This document shows, piece after piece, positions 2-41,734 of a stretch of DNA of 64,000 nucleotides; position 1 is the first letter of the stretch, and each line of letters begins with the position of its first letter. Below the pieces are notes generated by a model. The model saw nothing but the letters and a program-made list of their open reading frames with translations. It did not search any database and was not told where the DNA came from. Position numbers and translations under genes: made by a program. This DNA is from a phage. The stretch lies in the sequence record OZ346151.1, one strand, 5' to 3'.

Positions 2-1465
2 AACTGTGGATGTGCAAACGCAGTAGATACTTTTGCAAACAATGAGAAATTTATCCGTAGCTACGGAACAGTGGTCCTTGCAATGGACAACGATGCGGCT
101 AACGAGGTAGAGAAGCAAAAACACGTTATCAAAGGTGTTGAAGCCACACATAATATTGCAGCATTTTTGATGGCTGACAACGTTTACCACGTGGAATATC
201 CTGGCGAGGTAAACGACCCTGATGGTGTAAAAGATATCCGTGACATGCTGAAGGCTAAAAAGCTGGAAGATATTGTAAACATGTTCCGGCATCCTGTTAA
301 GTATGTGCCTGATGCTGTGTCGGATTTAGAAGACTTCTCTATCGAATCTTTGCGGAAAAAGACTTCCAACGGGGTAGATATCAGCGCAGAGTTTCCAAAA
401 CTGCAAAAAATGCTAAAAGGCTTGCACAAAGGGACACTCGTAATGCTTACAGGTCCATCAGGAGGTGGTAAAACAACTGTAGCCAAAAAACTGGAACACT
501 GTATTGCAAGATACCTAATGGACCCGACATGTCCAAAGGCCGATGACTACGAAGAGGATGATCGTCTATGCATGATTCATCTTGAGGAGGACCCAGAGGA
601 AGCAATTAACTCCTTGTATGCAAACCAGTTAGGGTTTGATGTTAAAGAGTTTGTTGAAGATCCTAGCCAGTTTTTAACTGATCAAGAACATGCAGAGATT
701 CACCAATCATGGGCAAAAGCTGGAAAAATCAAAGTGTTCAAACATTTCGGGTCTATTCCAGTGGACGAGTTGATTACCAAGCTTAAGCAAATGGTTTGCC
801 TGTACCATTGTCGCTATATTGTGCTGGATCACCTGTCTATGGTAATTTCAGGGCTTAATGTTAAAGATGAGCGAAAAGAACTGGACATGGCTATGACTCA
901 GCTGGCTGCGTTTTGTAAGCAGTTTAACGTGTTTATCTTGGTGATCGCTCACCTCAAACGTACAGAGATTGTGCCTCCTAAGGACAAGGATGGTAACCCA
1001 TTACCTTTCTGGTATCCTGTGCGAAAAGAGAATTTGCGAGGATCGGCTGGGCTTGAACAGTTGAGTTGGGTAGTCATAGGTGTCGAGGCCGAAGAAATGG
1101 TGGATCGTTCTCGTGGGCGTGTCCGTCTGGTAGGTCTTAAAAACCGTCCAGCAAAAACTTTAGGTATTGCTGACACTTTAGTTATGGACCCACATACAGG
1201 TAAGTTCCATGATGCCAGTAATTGGTACTGGGACAAAGAAATGCAGATGTTTACAGACGGAGAAGGTGGGGAGGTTGTTTGGAGACCTCAGGCCATGTTT
1301 GAGGACCAAGAGCATGCAGTTGTAGAAACACCTATGGGCAAGGTTGTAGCCGATAAGGTTGTAACTCCTACTATTAAGCCTGTTGACACGCAGGAAGACC
1401 TTCAGTACGATGATCCATCCTCTGATCCGGTCCCCGGTTTTGAGGATGATGAAACACCTTTTTAA
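2..1465 (+). CDS. primase-helicase (T7 gp4-like), 5'-partial
   Basis: Frame open from window edge (no upstream stop); Toprim-like LAMDND motif; Walker A GPSGGGKTT; DnaB-type helicase region; acidic C-terminal tail ending FEDDETPF. Confidence 0.85.
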   Translation, partial: NCGCANAVDTFANNEKFIRSYGTVVLAMDNDAANEVEKQKHVIKGVEATHNIAAFLMADNVYHVEYPGEVNDPDGVKDIRDMLKAKKLEDIVNMFRHPVKYVPDAVSDLEDFSIESLRKKTSNGVDISAEFPKLQKMLKGLHKGTLVMLTGPSGGGKTTVAKKLEHCIARYLMDPTCPKADDYEEDDRLCMIHLEEDPEEAINSLYANQLGFDVKEFVEDPSQFLTDQEHAEIHQSWAKAGKIKVFKHFGSIPVDELITKLKQMVCLYHCRYIVLDHLSMVISGLNVKDERKELDMAMTQLAAFCKQFNVFILVIAHLKRTEIVPPKDKDGNPLPFWYPVRKENLRGSAGLEQLSWVVIGVEAEEMVDRSRGRVRLVGLKNRPAKTLGIADTLVMDPHTGKFHDASNWYWDKEMQMFTDGEGGEVVWRPQAMFEDQEHAVVETPMGKVVADKVVTPTIKPVDTQEDLQYDDPSSDPVPGFEDDETPF

Positions 1466-1523
1466 TGTTTAACAAAGAGTGGGAGGGGTAGTACAACCGC
1501 CTCCCCTTTAAGGAGAACTGTAT

Positions 1524-3947
1524 ATGAGCATGTGGTCGTTCGACTTTGAGTCATCCGGTTTGCTGGAAGACCCAGATCTTTATTATCACTGCGGCCTGTT
1601 TAAAGAGCTGAATAAGAACCGTTTTATGCTGTTCCTTCCTCTAAATGACCGCACACACTACTCCGAGGAGGATATAGAAAAGGCTAAGAACTTCATTCTG
1701 GCAAAGAAAACTCTTTATAAAGATTTTGAAGTTCGCATAGCAGATTTTTCAGAGTTGGAAGGTTGGCTTACAGGAAATTCTGACTGGTCACCAACAGCTT
1801 TGAACTGCCATAACTGCTACAGTTATGACTTTATGCTGATGGAAAGATTATCTGGTATTCATTTTGATATGTTCCGTGATCCTAAGTGTATGGGGACTAT
1901 CAACGATCACCAGGTTAACCTGTTTGATACGTTGGCGATGAGCCGAATCTTGTGGCCTGATCGCCCTTTACCAAAAGGTTGTCCGGACTCTGTATTCAAC
2001 CCGGTTACTAAGAAAATGCAGCCTGTTGGTCCTCACGGCCTTATGGCATGGGGCTACGCCCTTGGTAACCAGAAAGTTCAAATTGATGACTGGCGCGATC
2101 TTCCGTTATGGAAGTATGTGGATCGTGTATTTGAGGACGTTATCATCCAGGAGCTGCTCTGGAAAGAGCTGGTAGCGGAATCAAAAGGTGTATTCTACGG
2201 CAAATCTGACATGCAGAACTTTATGTACGATCCTGCCAAAGAGAAGCCGAAAGGGTTCAAGAAGATCACCTGGAAGAACGCATTACGTCGAGGCATGTTG
2301 CAGCACTTCCTGATGGAGCTGCAGGCCCGTCAGGGTGTATACTTCGACATAGATGGGGCTATTGCTTTACGTGACCGCTGCGATGCGTGGATGAAAGAGA
2401 TCGCTGATCGTGTTGAACCACAACTGCCTTTAAAAGAGCTGTCAATGTCTCAGCGGCCCAAGTTCCCTGAAAAGCCGTTTAACCAAGATGGGACAATCTC
2501 TAATAATGGTTGGAAATGGTTAAAAGATAAGCTTGGCTATCCTGTGGACATGAGTGCTTTAGAGTTCAAAGCCCCACCTAAGCGAGCATTTACCTCTACA
2601 GGAGATGTCAGTAAGATGGGGATAAAATGGTGTGAAGAGATGGGCTGCAAAGACCACGATAAGATGGCTGATTTCTTGAGAGGTTATATTAAGGGCACCT
2701 CCACACCACAACCTTTACCTAAAGAGCTGATGGATCAGGCAATAAGCGATCTGCAACAGAAGCGAATGCCTGACTGCAAGATACCTATGAAAATCAGCAA
2801 TCAGGACGACATTAAGCGATACCTGATCAGTGCTGGTTGGCTTCCGACAATGTGGAGAACTAAGGATGTAACTAAGGACAGCAAGAAGAAAGCTCTACCT
2901 GATGCAGATGTTGATGCACGAGTATATGCATACATGGACGAGCTTTTAGAGTCAGAGTATTGTGACCTAATTATCAACTTCTGGAACAAAACTGATGCTA
3001 AGTTTCAGACAACAGTGCACAAGTTCCGAAGCTTTCCTAACTCCGAAAGGATTAAAAAGGAAGTGTTCGGGAAAATACGCAGAAAAGCCAGGGCACTTAT
3101 TACTTCTCCGCAACTGAAAGATACGTTTGGACACCTATGTCCGAATCTTGAAAAATTGAACGGAGAGATGGCTAAAGATATCGTCTTGTGGTTATCATTG
3201 CGAAACCGCAGATCGGTCCTTGATCCAATCAAGGAGGATAAGGTTGATACTGGTCTTCTTAATCACCCACGTTTGAAGATTGACCATAAGCTTCCTGCTA
3301 AAAGCTCTGGATTAACAAACACTTCCCGACAGAAACACAGTATTTGTGCAAACATGCCTAAACCATCTCCTAAAGTGGTTATGGGTAAAGAGATGCGTAG
3401 CTTGTGGGGTGTTCCTCCTGGATACTTTGAGATCGGTATTGACGGGTCCAACTTAGAGCAGCTTATCGGGGCTTGGGGTGCCTTTGAGTTCGACAACGGC
3501 TTGTACTATGATGTTGTAAGTAACGGGGACGCACACCAAAACAATGCTGAGGCATATACAAAAGTAGCAGGCAGAGAGGTGTCTCGTAACGACGGTAAAC
3601 CTATCACGTATGGGGTTATGTACGGGGCACAAAAAGATAAAGTTGCAGATATGCTGGATATCTCCCCAGAGTTGGGGCAAAGGGTGATCGATGCACTTTG
3701 GGATGCCAACCCAGGTCTTAAGGGGCGCAAAGAGGATCTGGAGAAATTCTGGGAAGCAACAGGTAAGAAGTTTATCTACTCTTTTGATGGTCATGCTATC
3801 TGGACCCGATCTAAACACTCTTTACTTAATGCATACCAACAAAATGGCGGCGCATCGTTGTGTGACTTAGTTGGGATACTCATGCACCATCAAATGGTGA
3901 AGCGTGGGTGGTACGATGAAGGTGTTCGTCGTATTATCTATTACCAT
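1524..3947 (+). CDS. DNA polymerase, family A (T7 gp5-like), exon 1
   Basis: SD AAGGAG before ATG 1524; exo motif FDFESSG; pol motif A IGIDGSNLEQ; motif B KPITYGVMYG; ORF stops right after ...IIYYH, i.e. before motif C. Confidence 0.85.
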
Positions 3948-4789
3948 AAATAACATTGTGGCTTCGTGCAGTGATGCACGTCGAAAACCTCTTTAATTGA
4001 CGGGAAGGCTAAGTTGACTTTTACACCTAAACATGGTAAAAGCTCAATATGCTAATCCGCAGCGAAGACTAAAGGGGTGTAGTTAAAATGGCTAGATCAG
4101 TTGAGTATCACGGATATACCGTGTTTGATGATGGAACAATACCTTTATCGAAACGTGATCATACAACAATGTTTTGTTTTGATAATGGTCGAGGTTACCT
4201 TTGCGTAACCATGTTCATCGAGGGGAAGCAGTGCACAAAAGGTGTCCACCACTTGGTTGCTGAATGCTTTGTATCAAACCCTGATCCTGAAAGGCTCACA
4301 TGGGTGAACCATAAGGACGGAAACAAATACAACAATGCATACTGGAACCTTGAATGGACCACCCCTGGTGGAAATATCAAACACGCTTATGATAATGACC
4401 TCAGAGTAAGGCCAGTCGGTGAGTATAATGCCAACGCTGTACTGACCGAGGATGAGGTAACGGAGATTTGCGAACTGTTACAAAGTGGTTTACGACAATG
4501 CGAGATTAGGGATCTTGGGTATCCTTATGAGACGGTCAGAGCCATAAAGCAAAGAAGACAGTGGAAACATATCTCTAAAAACTACACCTGGTAGTAACGT
4601 TCAGAGACTATCGAAAGCATAGCGCCAACATAAATTGGTGCGAAGAAGCGAGTAGAGTAGACCAGCAAGTGCGGTCGAAATGGGAGGTGCCTTGGTAACA
4701 AGGTAGTGAGATAGTCCGATCCATACAGGAAACTGTATGGCTGTGCACGTAATGGTGCGGGGTAGCTTAACGACCTACCTGAACTATTG
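3948..4789 (+). mobile_element. putative group I self-splicing intron in DNA polymerase gene, carrying HNH homing endonuclease ORF
   Basis: Exon 1 ends ...YYH after a U (3947); downstream frame resumes DEYQLQV...GRNWGDCH, restoring motif C (YHDE) and the family A C-terminus; possible P1 pairing exon CCAU with intron GUGG (3958-3961); G at 4789 precedes exon 2; boundaries +/- a few nt. Confidence 0.65.
4088..4594 (+). CDS. HNH homing endonuclease (intron-encoded)
   Basis: HNH motif ...VNHKDGNKYNNAYWNLEWTTPGGNIKH; own start and stop inside the polymerase interruption. Confidence 0.8.
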   Translation: MARSVEYHGYTVFDDGTIPLSKRDHTTMFCFDNGRGYLCVTMFIEGKQCTKGVHHLVAECFVSNPDPERLTWVNHKDGNKYNNAYWNLEWTTPGGNIKHAYDNDLRVRPVGEYNANAVLTEDEVTEICELLQSGLRQCEIRDLGYPYETVRAIKQRRQWKHISKNYTW

Positions 4790-5143
4790 GATGAGTACCA
4801 ACTTCAAGTCCCTGACACACCGAAGTATAAGACTGTGTACACCTTCGACACAATCGAAGAACTGGAAGCATTTAAGGCAGAGCAGGAGGCCAAACTTCAT
4901 GTGTTCGACGGTCATAAGTACAAAAAGGCACGCAAGGATGAGGACGGAAACGAAGTGGTTGACAGAGACGGAAACACGGTGTACGATCCTATCCTGAACG
5001 ATGACGGAAAGCTTGAACTTATCTGGAGCCCTGTGGGTGAAATGGTGGTGCATTGCTTCTGGCAAGCTTCTAAAATGATGGGCGTCCCGTTCCAGATCAC
5101 GGGTGAATACCTGTGTGGTCGTAATTGGGGTGATTGTCACTAA
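4790..5143 (+). CDS. DNA polymerase, family A, exon 2 (motif C and C-terminus)
   Basis: Begins DEYQLQV; ends GRNWGDCH, resembling the T7 DNA polymerase C-terminus as remembered. Confidence 0.7.
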   Translation, partial: DEYQLQVPDTPKYKTVYTFDTIEELEAFKAEQEAKLHVFDGHKYKKARKDEDGNEVVDRDGNTVYDPILNDDGKLELIWSPVGEMVVHCFWQASKMMGVPFQITGEYLCGRNWGDCH

Positions 5144-38813: not shown

Positions 38814-40085
38814 TCAGCAACCACAACTTCCGTAGTGCTTAACTCGCTCGATAACTTCCGCTTGCTTACCTTTATTGTAAGGACGGGAGTTAGGACTGGA
38901 AAGGTATCCAGACACACGTCGAATTACACTGATCGTTCCCTCTTCATGGTTTCCACACTCTGGGCATACAAAGCCTTTAGCTGTTGCACTGAACTCACCA
39001 GAGAAACCACACTTGAGACATTTATCCACAGGTTGGTTAATACCAAAATACATAATGTGTTTATACCCGAAGTCAACAAGAGCCTCTAAAGCATCCAGGT
39101 TGTTTTTCAGGTTAGGTGTTTCTACGTATCCGATGTTGCCACCAGAGGATATCATAGCAAAACCTTCTTCATACTCCCACTTATCAAAAGGAGAGCTATT
39201 GATCCATACTGGCTGATGGAAACTGTTGGTGAGATATTCATGCTCGTGCTTCAACACTTCAGGATATTCACGATCCAGACAGGTTGCAGCTTTATAGCAT
39301 AGACTCTCAGAAGGGGTGCCGTACAAACTAAACGCTAGTCTACTTTTCTTCTTGTATCGCTCACAAGCATCTCTCATGTGCTGAAGTATTCCAAGAGCTA
39401 AAGCCTTGTCACCCTCTCTGCCCAAAATCTGACAGGTTTCATACACACCAATATACCCAATACTGATGGAAGCGTACCCGTCATAGAAGAGTTTATCAAT
39501 ACTCTCTTCAGGATCCAGGCGAGCAAGAGCGCCTTCACACCACATGATAGGGTTCTGCCCTGCCTTAGTGCCTTTCAGACGGTTAACCCTTACAAGGTGA
39601 GCTTCATATGCCAAATCCAGATACTCGTCAAGAACGGAAAAGAAATCAACACCTTCCGTCTTAGCTTTTGCCGCAATCATTGGCAGGTTAAGACTAACAA
39701 CACCCAAGTTGAATCTGCCGAGGTATTTCTCCTCACCTGTTTCCAAGTCATTGTATTTGCTAAGAAAACTCCGGCAACCCATGCTCGTTACTTTACCATC
39801 TGTCGAGCCTGTCACTTTACGATTTAGTGGAACAGAAACAAAGTCAGGATAAATCCGCTCTGCAGAGCATTCCAGAGCTAATCGTTTCAAATCATAGTTA
39901 GGATCTCCAGGGTTCATGTTGACACCCTCTTCTAGGAAGAACAACACTTTAGGGAACACAGGTGTGATACGTTCTTCACCAAGACCCATTTTGTGGACTT
40001 TCAAGTAGTTTTTGGTAATCATTCTACCAAAGACTGAGGTGTCCAGACCTAAACTTAATGTGATGAATGGAGTCTGCTGTCTCCT
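38814..40085 (-). CDS. nrdD: anaerobic ribonucleotide reductase NrdD, exon 2 (C-terminal part)
   Basis: Glycyl-radical motif RRVSGYL; zinc ribbon CLKCGF...CPECG; similarity to remembered E. coli NrdD (QTPF..LG.DTS) begins upstream of first ATG, implying splicing. Confidence 0.8.
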   Translation of the reverse strand, partial: RRQQTPFITLSLGLDTSVFGRMITKNYLKVHKMGLGEERITPVFPKVLFFLEEGVNMNPGDPNYDLKRLALECSAERIYPDFVSVPLNRKVTGSTDGKVTSMGCRSFLSKYNDLETGEEKYLGRFNLGVVSLNLPMIAAKAKTEGVDFFSVLDEYLDLAYEAHLVRVNRLKGTKAGQNPIMWCEGALARLDPEESIDKLFYDGYASISIGYIGVYETCQILGREGDKALALGILQHMRDACERYKKKSRLAFSLYGTPSESLCYKAATCLDREYPEVLKHEHEYLTNSFHQPVWINSSPFDKWEYEEGFAMISSGGNIGYVETPNLKNNLDALEALVDFGYKHIMYFGINQPVDKCLKCGFSGEFSATAKGFVCPECGNHEEGTISVIRRVSGYLSSPNSRPYNKGKQAEVIERVKHYGSCGC

Positions 40086-40882
40086 CCCTGTGTTTCCACA
40101 GGGCCAGACTATCTCTTACTCTACTTCAATAAGATAATAACCCTTTATTGTGAGATGCTTACCTTCGGCATTTCCTTCGATAGCCCTATGAACGTTACCT
40201 ACGTTCAAATTTAAGGCTTTTGCACAGGCATAGAGTGAAGGATATTCACCCACCAAGGTTTTACCTTTGTATGCCTGCACTTTCCTATAGCACTTACCTG
40301 GACAAAGTCCTGTTCGGAAAGCATGTCTCTTATTATCTTCCGGCAAAACCCACTCTAGGTTAGACGGATGATCATTCAATGTATTGCCATCTTTATGATT
40401 CACTTCCCAGTTTTCAGGGTCTTCTGGGACATCCGGCAAACAATACAAGGCAACAATCCTTGAGGTTTGGATTCGAATCTTTTTACCTTTGTGGTTGAAA
40501 GAGTACATATAACGGCGTTTAACATGCTTGTTACCTTTTCCATAACCTCCCCACAATATTGGGTGTAGCATTCCACGTTTTCCGTATACGTTTCCAACCT
40601 CATCAATCACATAGTTTGATTCTTCACCATTAAGAATGATCTTTTTCATAGAGCCTCTCCATTTCGAAGTTAGTATTTCAACTAACCCCTACACTACTTG
40701 GTTCAGAAATGTTTGTCAAGCATTTCTGCCTTTCGTTAGTCGTTACAACCGTTCCAACTCCTGTAAGAACTAGTCACGGGATTGGCATAGCTTTCGCCTT
40801 AGCGTTCCCCGTTAGCCGGATTTACCGACCCCTCTTATGAGGTTAGGAGAGTTTTACAACGGCCAGTTTGTTAACCGTTGAC
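40086..40882 (-). mobile_element. putative group I intron in nrdD with 3'-located HNH ORF
   Basis: nrdD reading frame broken between ...INTLTS and RRQQTPF...; HNH ORF in the gap ends ~30 nt before exon 2 (ORF-at-3'-end layout as recalled for the T4 nrdD intron); boundaries approximate. Confidence 0.6.
40116..40649 (-). CDS. HNH homing endonuclease (intron-encoded)
   Basis: HNH motif VNHKDGNTLNDHPSNLEWV; paralogous to 4088-4594. Confidence 0.8.
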   Translation of the reverse strand: MKKIILNGEESNYVIDEVGNVYGKRGMLHPILWGGYGKGNKHVKRRYMYSFNHKGKKIRIQTSRIVALYCLPDVPEDPENWEVNHKDGNTLNDHPSNLEWVLPEDNKRHAFRTGLCPGKCYRKVQAYKGKTLVGEYPSLYACAKALNLNVGNVHRAIEGNAEGKHLTIKGYYLIEVE

Positions 40883-41734
40883 AGAAGTTAACGTGTTGAT
40901 TTGATAGAGCAAAGTCTGCATGCTGTCAAATACGTCTTTATCTGTCATTTGCATTGCAACAGTTTCAGCATCCGGCAACCAATGTTCCTGGCAAAATTTA
41001 AGGTTCTTCTCATAGGTTGCTTCAGCATACTGTGCCAGATAATGATCAATATGGCTCATAGTCTGACCACCATATTGAGCACTAGCTACCGCACTAGAGA
41101 TTTGGCTAAGGATTGTTGTTGCAACCCCTATTGACTTCGGCTTACTGACATGGGCGTTACCAATGTTGAATCCGTTTTCCAACATATCTGGATAATTTAC
41201 CAAACAACAGTTTGTTAACGGACTGATCAAGTAGTCAAGATCATGCACATGGATGAATCCTTTATTGTGCTCTTCGGAGACACGGTCTGGCAGGATCTGT
41301 GTTGATGCAAGGTGTTTGCTAAGAATACCTGCAAGCAGGTCGCGATGAGTGTGTACATGATTAGTAGGCTTATTTGCGTTTTCTTTTGTAAATTCATCAC
41401 AAGTTCGATCCAAGAAGCCACTAATATCTGCAAGCAGTTTTCCACCTGCCTCTCTGTTATTATCTCTTGTCTGTCTATACTGGATGTATTCTCTGGCTGC
41501 ACATTTTAAACCCATATCCATAAGAGCATCTTCAACAAGGATATGGATATTTTTTACAGAGATCGTGCACTGGTCGGTTGGTAGATTGTTAGCAACAACT
41601 TCATTAACCGCGCAGGCGATCCGGTAAGCTTCTTCTTCAGTATGTCCAGACTCAAGTAAGGCGGACTCTGCCGCCTTGATCACCTTAATTCCGTTATAGA
41701 ACTCTTCTCTACCGTCCCGTTTTACAACTTTCAC
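40883..41734 (-). CDS. nrdD: anaerobic ribonucleotide reductase NrdD, exon 1 (ATP-cone and N-terminal part)
   Basis: ATP-cone-like N-terminus VVKRDGREEF; ORF stops shortly after ...INTLTS. Confidence 0.75.

Follow-up and report, generated by a model that had tools for sequence, protein, structure and literature searches.

An HNH-bearing group I intron of subgroup IA2, very probably mobile and self-splicing, splits motif C of the DNA polymerase gene of an rV5-like coliphage

The group I introns of phage T4 lie in td, nrdB and nrdD (sunY), host genes that differ from the polymerase gene considered here, and their endonucleases are of the GIY-YIG type (I-TevI, I-TevII) or of a different HNH type (I-TevIII). 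The introns of SPO1/SP82 (I-HmuI/I-HmuII) and Pf-WMP3 (I-PfoP3I) likewise belong to IA2 and interrupt family A polymerase genes of phages; they encode HNH nicking endonucleases, and I-HmuI is the solved structure closest to the endonuclease ORF reported below. These introns occupy another site, at Pol I position 674 in the fingers (PMC3428280). The passage on the T7-like coliphages PhiI and W31 in the same source presents introns of subgroup IA2 described by Bonocora & Shub in 2004, which carry an HNH ORF in P6a and lie at Pol I 'site 881'; the W31 endonuclease is I-TslI (PMC3428280). Compared by this description, the PhiI/W31 introns and ours share the subgroup, the HNH ORF in P6a and a coliphage family A polymerase gene, whereas the polymerase lineages differ (T7-like podovirus versus a 135-140 kb myovirus). 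Site 881 should, in established Pol I numbering, be the His of the His-Asp-Glu motif, which would be the boundary at which our intron lies.

Within the same subfamily, Vequintavirinae, Pectobacterium phage CB7 carries an orthologous intron with the HNH gene CB7_50, and its splicing was shown by RT-PCR and sequencing (PMC7344957). This second polymerase intron of CB7, between CB7_51 and CB7_49, has the same junction (...IYYH|DEYQL) and the same 5' end (AAGTAACATTGTGGC) as ours, and its 3' half is alignable at 74%. Unlike ours, it is 687 nt long, encodes a different and shorter HNH ORF (127 aa) and differs in the P5 and P7.1 peripheries; CB7 also has another, upstream intron that is absent from our phage. 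For Shewanella phage KASIA, polymerase cDNA without the predicted introns was obtained, demonstrating splicing by RT-PCR (PMC8541194). The rV5 genome paper reports terminase introns only, with a polymerase length of 775 aa (PMC3606486), the BASEL paper states that comparative genomics was used to set intron boundaries (PMC8594841), and our literature search found no paper with a detailed description of the Vequintavirus polymerase intron. The same site and ribozyme also occur in ORF-less form in rV5 (276 nt), JLBYU08 (329 nt) and 18-1-2 (317 nt), all over the Rfam threshold. These alleles lack the endonuclease gene, their P6a is a simple GNRA-capped hairpin, and in rV5 the P5 and P7.1 extensions are trimmed as well. 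After deletion of the ORF, the core of our intron was 85-89% identical to the ORF-less alleles of Vequintavirus and 73% identical to that of the Avunavirus 18-1-2.

We analysed a stretch of phage DNA of 64,000 nucleotides (record OZ346151.1), hereafter the window. The region was 94-98.6% identical to rV5-like coliphages (Vequintavirus), with Escherichia phage AlexBoehm/Bas56 (MZ501048) as the closest relative, and by its sequence the window is an rV5-like coliphage of this genus. The polymerase locus contained the following features.

1524..3947, + strand: DNA polymerase exon 1, 808 codons, ending ...IYYH, with motifs A and B (ORF list, Pfam DNA_pol_A, PHROG 17/8888)
3948..4789, + strand: group I intron, subgroup IA2, 842 nt (RF00028 match, intron-less alleles, covariation)
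4088..4594, + strand: gene for an HNH homing endonuclease of 168 aa, which loops out of P6b (PHROG 59, I-HmuI match)
4790..5143, + strand: DNA polymerase exon 2, DEYQLQV...GRNWGDCH, stop codon 5141-5143 (PHROG 8888, T7 gp5 alignment)

We are highly confident that the insert at 3948-4789 is a mobile, self-splicing IA2 group I intron in a family A polymerase gene. The element is already known: its core and HNH protein are 100% identical to the copies in Bas56, whose GenBank record joins two pieces into one polymerase CDS, with a 'putative homing endonuclease' between them, so that an identical copy stands annotated as an intron. It is of a textbook type and adds nothing new on group I introns.

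The polymerase ORF (1524..3953, + strand) ended in ...RRIIYYHK*. The last base of exon 1 was 3947, in a CAT codon for His; past it, the frame read an AAA codon inside the insert and then TAA at 3951-3953, restarted at 4790 (GAT GAG, DE) and terminated with GRNWGDCH* at 5143. These results bear out the preliminary description, in which the ORF broke after ...RRIIYYH (3947) and returned at DEYQLQV after an 842-nt gap to end in GRNWGDCH, with the addition that the ORF runs one codon further, to the stop at 3951-3953, and that intron-less alleles make the boundaries exact. Together, exon 1 (2424 nt) and exon 2 (354 nt) come to 2778 nt, the length of the uninterrupted polymerase CDS of phage magaca. 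The PHROG 8888 profile matched exon 1 with positions 1-185 and exon 2 with positions 186-295, indicating that the two pieces are adjoining parts of a single protein. Ligation in silico restored ...IYYH|DEYQL... (...TATTACCAT|GATGAGTAC... in nucleotides) and gave a 925-aa polymerase with motifs A, B and C in one polypeptide. When this product was aligned with T7 gp5, as the preliminary description had proposed, the match to residues 469-658 ran from GIDaSgLE (motif A) to vHDEiqv and thus through the His-Asp-Glu of motif C, which places the intron between the motif C His and the catalytic Asp. The intron interrupts the motif (HDE) in phase 0, after the His codon and before the Asp codon.

The boundaries were determined from four intron-less alleles (magaca, JeffSchatz, Murica and slur12), in which window base 3947 is joined directly to 4790, and the flanking bases (5' T|A, 3' G|G) permit no shift. 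In the magaca alignment, window 3700-3947 corresponds to 901-1148 and window 4790-5000 to 1149-1359; this contiguity defines the insert as 3948-4789. The encoded junction ...IYYH|DEYQL... was common to every allele compared. Across 117 matching phage records the region came in four sizes relative to the window: full length, about 514 nt shorter (JLBYU08, HMD-6), 566 nt shorter (rV5 and others) and exactly 842 nt shorter (magaca, nomo, JohannBauhin and others). The allelic series in Vequintavirus genomes that are >90% identical comprises no intron, an ORF-less intron of 276 or 329 nt, and the HNH-bearing intron of 842 nt. Presence or absence at one exact site was found even among phages >95% identical, a pattern that, at the level of sequence comparison, is as expected of a homing element and supports the earlier reading of a homing-type intron. 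Such a series within one genus, with near-identical flanks, offers a natural system for the study of the homing cycle and of target-site resistance.

The alleles also varied in the first 12 nt of exon 2. The intron-less magaca and slur12 read GAC GAA TAT CAG at window 4790-4801, while intron-bearing alleles and two other intron-less alleles read GAT GAG TAC CAA, a difference of four silent changes; slur12 equals the window at the remaining 288 flanking bases examined. JLBYU08, whose intron is ORF-less, has three of the four silent changes and retains the P10-pairing T. The GAC GAA TAT CAG variant could be an endonuclease-resistant target or a recombination patch.

The main value of these results lies in annotation. 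Many public records of the genus (rV5 RefSeq, CM1, ime, FV3, Mangalyan and others) annotate two polymerase genes and an HNH gene, and the correct product is one 925-aa enzyme from a spliced mRNA. In the RefSeq record of the type phage rV5 (NC_011041) the 276-nt ORF-less group I intron at the H|DE site occupies locus positions 1149-1424, the polymerase is annotated as two genes (gp223 and gp220), and the small hypothetical ORFs gp222 and gp221 lie in or overlap the intron, which thus carries two spurious small ORF calls. The same intron polymorphism was present in 16 'Campylobacter phage' records (MG0656xx, host C. jejuni) that are 95-97% identical to coliphage Vequintavirus over the polymerase region; the C. 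jejuni host label of these records looks doubtful.

To identify the class of the insert, we compared it with Rfam. RF00028 matched the window at 3938-4739 over the full model with 39.1 bits (E 3.3e-8), handling the ORF as a 510-nt insertion in P6, and this insertion would account for a score below the gathering threshold of 50. A search of the whole window at the gathering threshold gave zero matches, presumably owing to the long ORF insertions in both of its introns. The ORF-less orthologues at the H|DE site scored 91.2 bits (18-1-2), 77.3 (Vibrio phage K412), 72.5 (JLBYU08), 69.4 (KASIA) and 64.7 (rV5), and the ORF-bearing orthologues CB7 (46.6 bits) and GEC_vB_MG (39.3 bits) fell under the threshold like the window copy. 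The core P3-P9, the P3/P7 pseudoknot and the elements P, Q, R and S were all located in the insert. Subgroup IA2 is distinguished by an extra P7.1 and P7.2 linked by GUA (PMC3428280), and in the insert P7.1 and P7.2 were present between P7 and P3', joined by G-U-A. The preliminary description had named an undetectable group I core as grounds for giving up its reading; the core was detected, both by the full-length RF00028 match and by covariation. The elements of the RNA are as follows.

3944..3961, + strand: P1 hairpin, exon CCAU and intron AA (3944-3949) with UUGUGG (3956-3961) (Rfam alignment)
3965..3980, + strand: P2 hairpin of 6 bp with a GUGA loop, 6/6 pairs compensatory, 100% paired
3987..4061, + strand: P3 5' strand (3988-3993) and the P4-P5-P5a-P5b arm (Rfam alignment, model, pair counts)
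3995-4008 and 4053-4063, + strand: conserved elements P and Q, respectively, in the P3-P5 arm region
4061..4084, + strand: 5' strands of P6 (4061-4064), P6a (4068-4071) and P6b (4075-4084) (RNAduplex)
4580..4601, + strand: 3' strands of P6b (4580-4589, within the ORF end), P6a (4592-4595, with the stop TAG) and P6 (4598-4601)
4599..4676, + strand: element R (4599-4610) and P7 5' strand (4606-4612), followed by P7.1/P7.1a (4617-4649), the G-U-A linker (4657-4659) and P7.2 (4660-4676)
4682..4717, + strand: P3 3' strand (4682-4687) and P8 hairpin (4689-4704) with a GUAA loop
4708-4717, + strand: J8/7 and element S with the P7 3' strand
4721..4789, + strand: P9 (4721-4740, GAAA loop), P9.1 (4744-4759), P9.2 (4761-4779) and the 3' tail to G4789

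The full model (P1, P2, P3, P4, P5/5a/5b, P6, P7, P7.1/7.1a, P7.2, P8, P9, P9.1 and P9.2) was assessed on 16 aligned homologues, drawn from ten phage groups and stripped of their ORFs. Cells were paired in 88.9% of cases under the model versus 36-42% with slid partners, 46 pairs were compensatory, having changed on both sides, versus 16-23, and the covariation score was 0.379 versus 0.05-0.09; none of 500 shuffles reached the observed values. Three to six compensatory pairs each were found in P2, P3, P7.2, P8, P9, P9.1 and P9.2. The helices P3, P7, P8 and P9 were 83-99% paired, each with compensatory changes (five pairs in P3, five in P8 and three in P7). Pairing reached 100% in P7.2 (3/4 pairs compensatory), 99% in P9, 100% in P9.1 and 94% in P9.2, the last three again with compensatory changes in each. 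P5a/P5b was the weakest-supported helix (60.6% paired, poorly aligned); MAFFT misaligns P4 and P5a/b at length differences, and the pairing counts there are too low. The G-U-A linker was invariant in the 16 sequences.

At the splice sites, the preliminary description had exon 1 ending in U and the intron in G, and the sequence indeed has T at 3947 and G at 4789. Its proposed pairing of CCAU (3944-3947) with GUGG (3958-3961) proved identical to the Rfam-aligned P1 and invariant in the 16 homologues. All six P1 pairs were standard in 16/16 homologues and five of the six never vary; the wobble U3947·G3958 at the 5' splice site is invariant, and the in-frame stop TAA (3951-3953) sits in the P1 loop. 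A P10 helix can form between CAUU (3954-3957) and exon 2 GAUG (4790-4793), with 4 bp in 14/16 homologues, and the terminal omega-G (4789) is G in 16/16. Covariation is uninformative on P1 and P10 because both never vary.

A stacked P6-P6a-P6b stem encloses the ORF, pairing 4061-4084 with 4580-4601 at -19.9 kcal/mol (RNAduplex), and the same arrangement with compensatory changes was seen in an Avunavirus-like uncultivated contig (UViG L021). The Shine-Dalgarno AAAGGGG lies about 10 nt upstream of the ORF, and its GGGG (4074-4077) is partly covered by P6b. The HNH gene at 4088-4594 does have its own Shine-Dalgarno, start and stop, as the preliminary description claimed, but the word 'free-standing' used there does not hold, as the gene is intron-encoded and looped out of P6.

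The 168-aa product matched PHROG 59 (E 6.5e-38). The Pfam HNH_3 match was weak (17.7 bits, cut-off 24.8), and the match to I-HmuI (PDB 1U3E; E 4.4e-6, about 30 bits) ran across the HNH motif and covered residues 12-100 only. In that alignment (vHHLVAecf...NHKDGNKyNN..NLeW) the conserved His and Asn of the motif are present, and the residue preceding the conserved His is Asn in the window ORF and Asp in I-HmuI. A single-sequence AlphaFold model had a mean pLDDT of 35, too poor for a comparison with the I-HmuI fold and its N-terminal DNA-binding sheet and C-terminal helix-turn-helix. By family, the ORF encodes an I-HmuI-like HNH endonuclease, with a presumed corresponding activity. Its copies in four Vequintavirus genomes differed mostly silently (dN/dS 0.07-0.14), which is the signature of purifying selection; a copy at least 90% identical occurs in about 31 records, and the Shine-Dalgarno, start codon and full length were kept in all copies examined. 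The intron ORF of Escherichia phage LTH01 (locus L010, 829-1320) is annotated from a GTG start and reads DHKWPDKRNN where relatives have DHKDGDKTNN; it may be a decaying endonuclease gene.

On these data the element would work as follows. The intron would be transcribed within the polymerase mRNA; scanning for consensus motifs revealed no promoter-like site ahead of the HNH ORF, and neither a promoter- nor a terminator-like site between the intron and the exons. Sequence, Rfam and covariation show that the RNA folds into P1-P10. Exogenous guanosine, by the known group I chemistry, would attack after U3947, which is held in the P1 wobble with G3958. P10 (GAUG 4790-4793 with CAUU 3954-3957) and G4789 would then align exon 2 for ligation, predicted in silico to yield ...IYYH-DEYQL... 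and the 925-aa polymerase. On unspliced RNA, ribosomes would stop at TAA 3951-3953 and produce an enzyme without the catalytic Asp and Glu. The P6b stem would partly hide the Shine-Dalgarno of the looped-out 168-aa ORF. In mixed infection, the HNH enzyme most likely nicks polymerase alleles that lack the intron, close to the site of insertion, and recombinational repair of the nicked allele would copy the intron in, which is homing. Splicing in the window phage is thus expected by analogy with the orthologues and from membership of the group I family.

Other explanations of the insert were weighed against a mobile, self-splicing intron. It is improbable, though the least so of these, that the intron splices and is no longer mobile, the HNH protein being inactive or having another role and the patchy distribution reflecting recombination and loss of intron or ORF. 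The ORF-less 276- and 329-nt derivatives, which are common in the genus, mark the ORF as dispensable and often lost, Asn stands in place of Asp beside the catalytic His relative to I-HmuI, and the related LTH01 copy has the degraded motif DHKWPD. Against this, the dN/dS of the Vequintavirus copies is that of a protein under selection, copies at least 90% identical occur in about 31 records, and the translation signals and full length are conserved throughout the copies examined.

That splicing does not take place and the polymerase consists of two assembling polypeptides, as PMC7344957 mentions for Aeromonas phage Aeh1 NrdA split by mobE, is very unlikely. Many GenBank records do list two polymerase CDSs, with the second from TTG 4787, but no Shine-Dalgarno was found upstream of 4787/4790, and we rejected a separately translated exon 2 on this ground and because the ribozyme core is complete, covaries and is conserved; the 'start' placed at TTG 4787 in several GenBank records is an annotation artefact. 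Moreover, a split would part the motif C Asp and Glu from motifs A and B, the orthologues at the same site splice (PMC7344957, PMC8541194), and the ORF-less 276-329-nt versions retain a ribozyme that would be useless without splicing. We give practically no credence to an intein or other in-frame, protein-level insertion. The relative Mangalyan has a 324-aa in-frame insert in the same gene, but the HNH ORF of the window has its own start codon and is set apart from both exons by non-coding RNA structure, and the intein reading is refuted by the polymerase frame, which meets TAA 3951-3953 one codon into the insert.

At least eight phage groups have related introns at this H|DE boundary: Seunavirus (GEC_vB_MG, PVP-SE1), Certrevirus (CB7, phiTE), Avunavirus (18-1-2), LTH01 (unclassified Vequintavirinae), Pakpunavirus SPA01, Plateaulakevirus 2L372D, Vibrio phage K412 and Shewanella phage KASIA, and so do two contigs of uncultivated viruses whose polymerases are quite different. 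The exon 1-intron junction occurred in 95 phage records, and intron-less alleles exist in Seunavirus and Certrevirus too. As a tentative and still rather doubtful proposal, H|DE might be a cross-family homing hot spot of one IA2 lineage, with an arms race possibly visible in Vequintavirus. This lineage, which may have the fixed guide sequence UUGUGG, would have spread to no fewer than eight unrelated groups of phages because its target TACCAT|GATGA is pinned by the catalytic residues. If the arms race were true, the exon 2 changes of magaca and slur12 would represent naturally occurring variants that resist the HNH nickase.

In addition to the intron at H|DE, the polymerase genes of Avuna-, Seuna- and Certrevirus contain another group I intron, which lies upstream (L008 114-317, L009 95-317, L011 362-565; Rfam 37.5-47.5 bits), which in CB7 is the intron with the HNH gene CB7_52; exon 1 of the window is uninterrupted at this site. 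Salmonella phage S.Kent 1-2-1 (OR850875, L029) has a group I intron at locus 850-1536 (Rfam 51 bits), the P9 region of which is 78.6% like that of the window intron over 82 nt, with a different HNH ORF. It was rejected as a T7-like example of the same site, as its intron lies at a different polymerase site, after ...TTGRLSASNP.

The Mangalyan insert mentioned above lies in polymerase exon 1 (Escherichia phage, OR449013, L002, locus 25-3423) between ...NGDAH and ...NNAKA; the window counterpart is GDAH|QNNAE at about 3536-3539. Its first residue is Cys, its end reads ...GN with a Cys directly after it, and Hint_2 matched it weakly (E 7e-5). This insert, which the window lacks, is probably an intein.

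The second intron of the window splits nrdD (anaerobic ribonucleotide reductase) at 40023-40873 on the minus strand and is likewise an HNH-bearing group I intron. Exon 1 corresponds to ORF 40871..41734 (ATP-cone and the N-terminal part of NRDD) and exon 2 to ORF 38814..40022 (the C-terminal part of NRDD and the glycyl radical domain), with the HNH ORF at 40116..40649. RF00028 matched 40086-40373 with 27.8 bits (E 0.0046). Sequences of P1, the S element and P9 could be recognised by eye, and the ORF appears to lie within P8.
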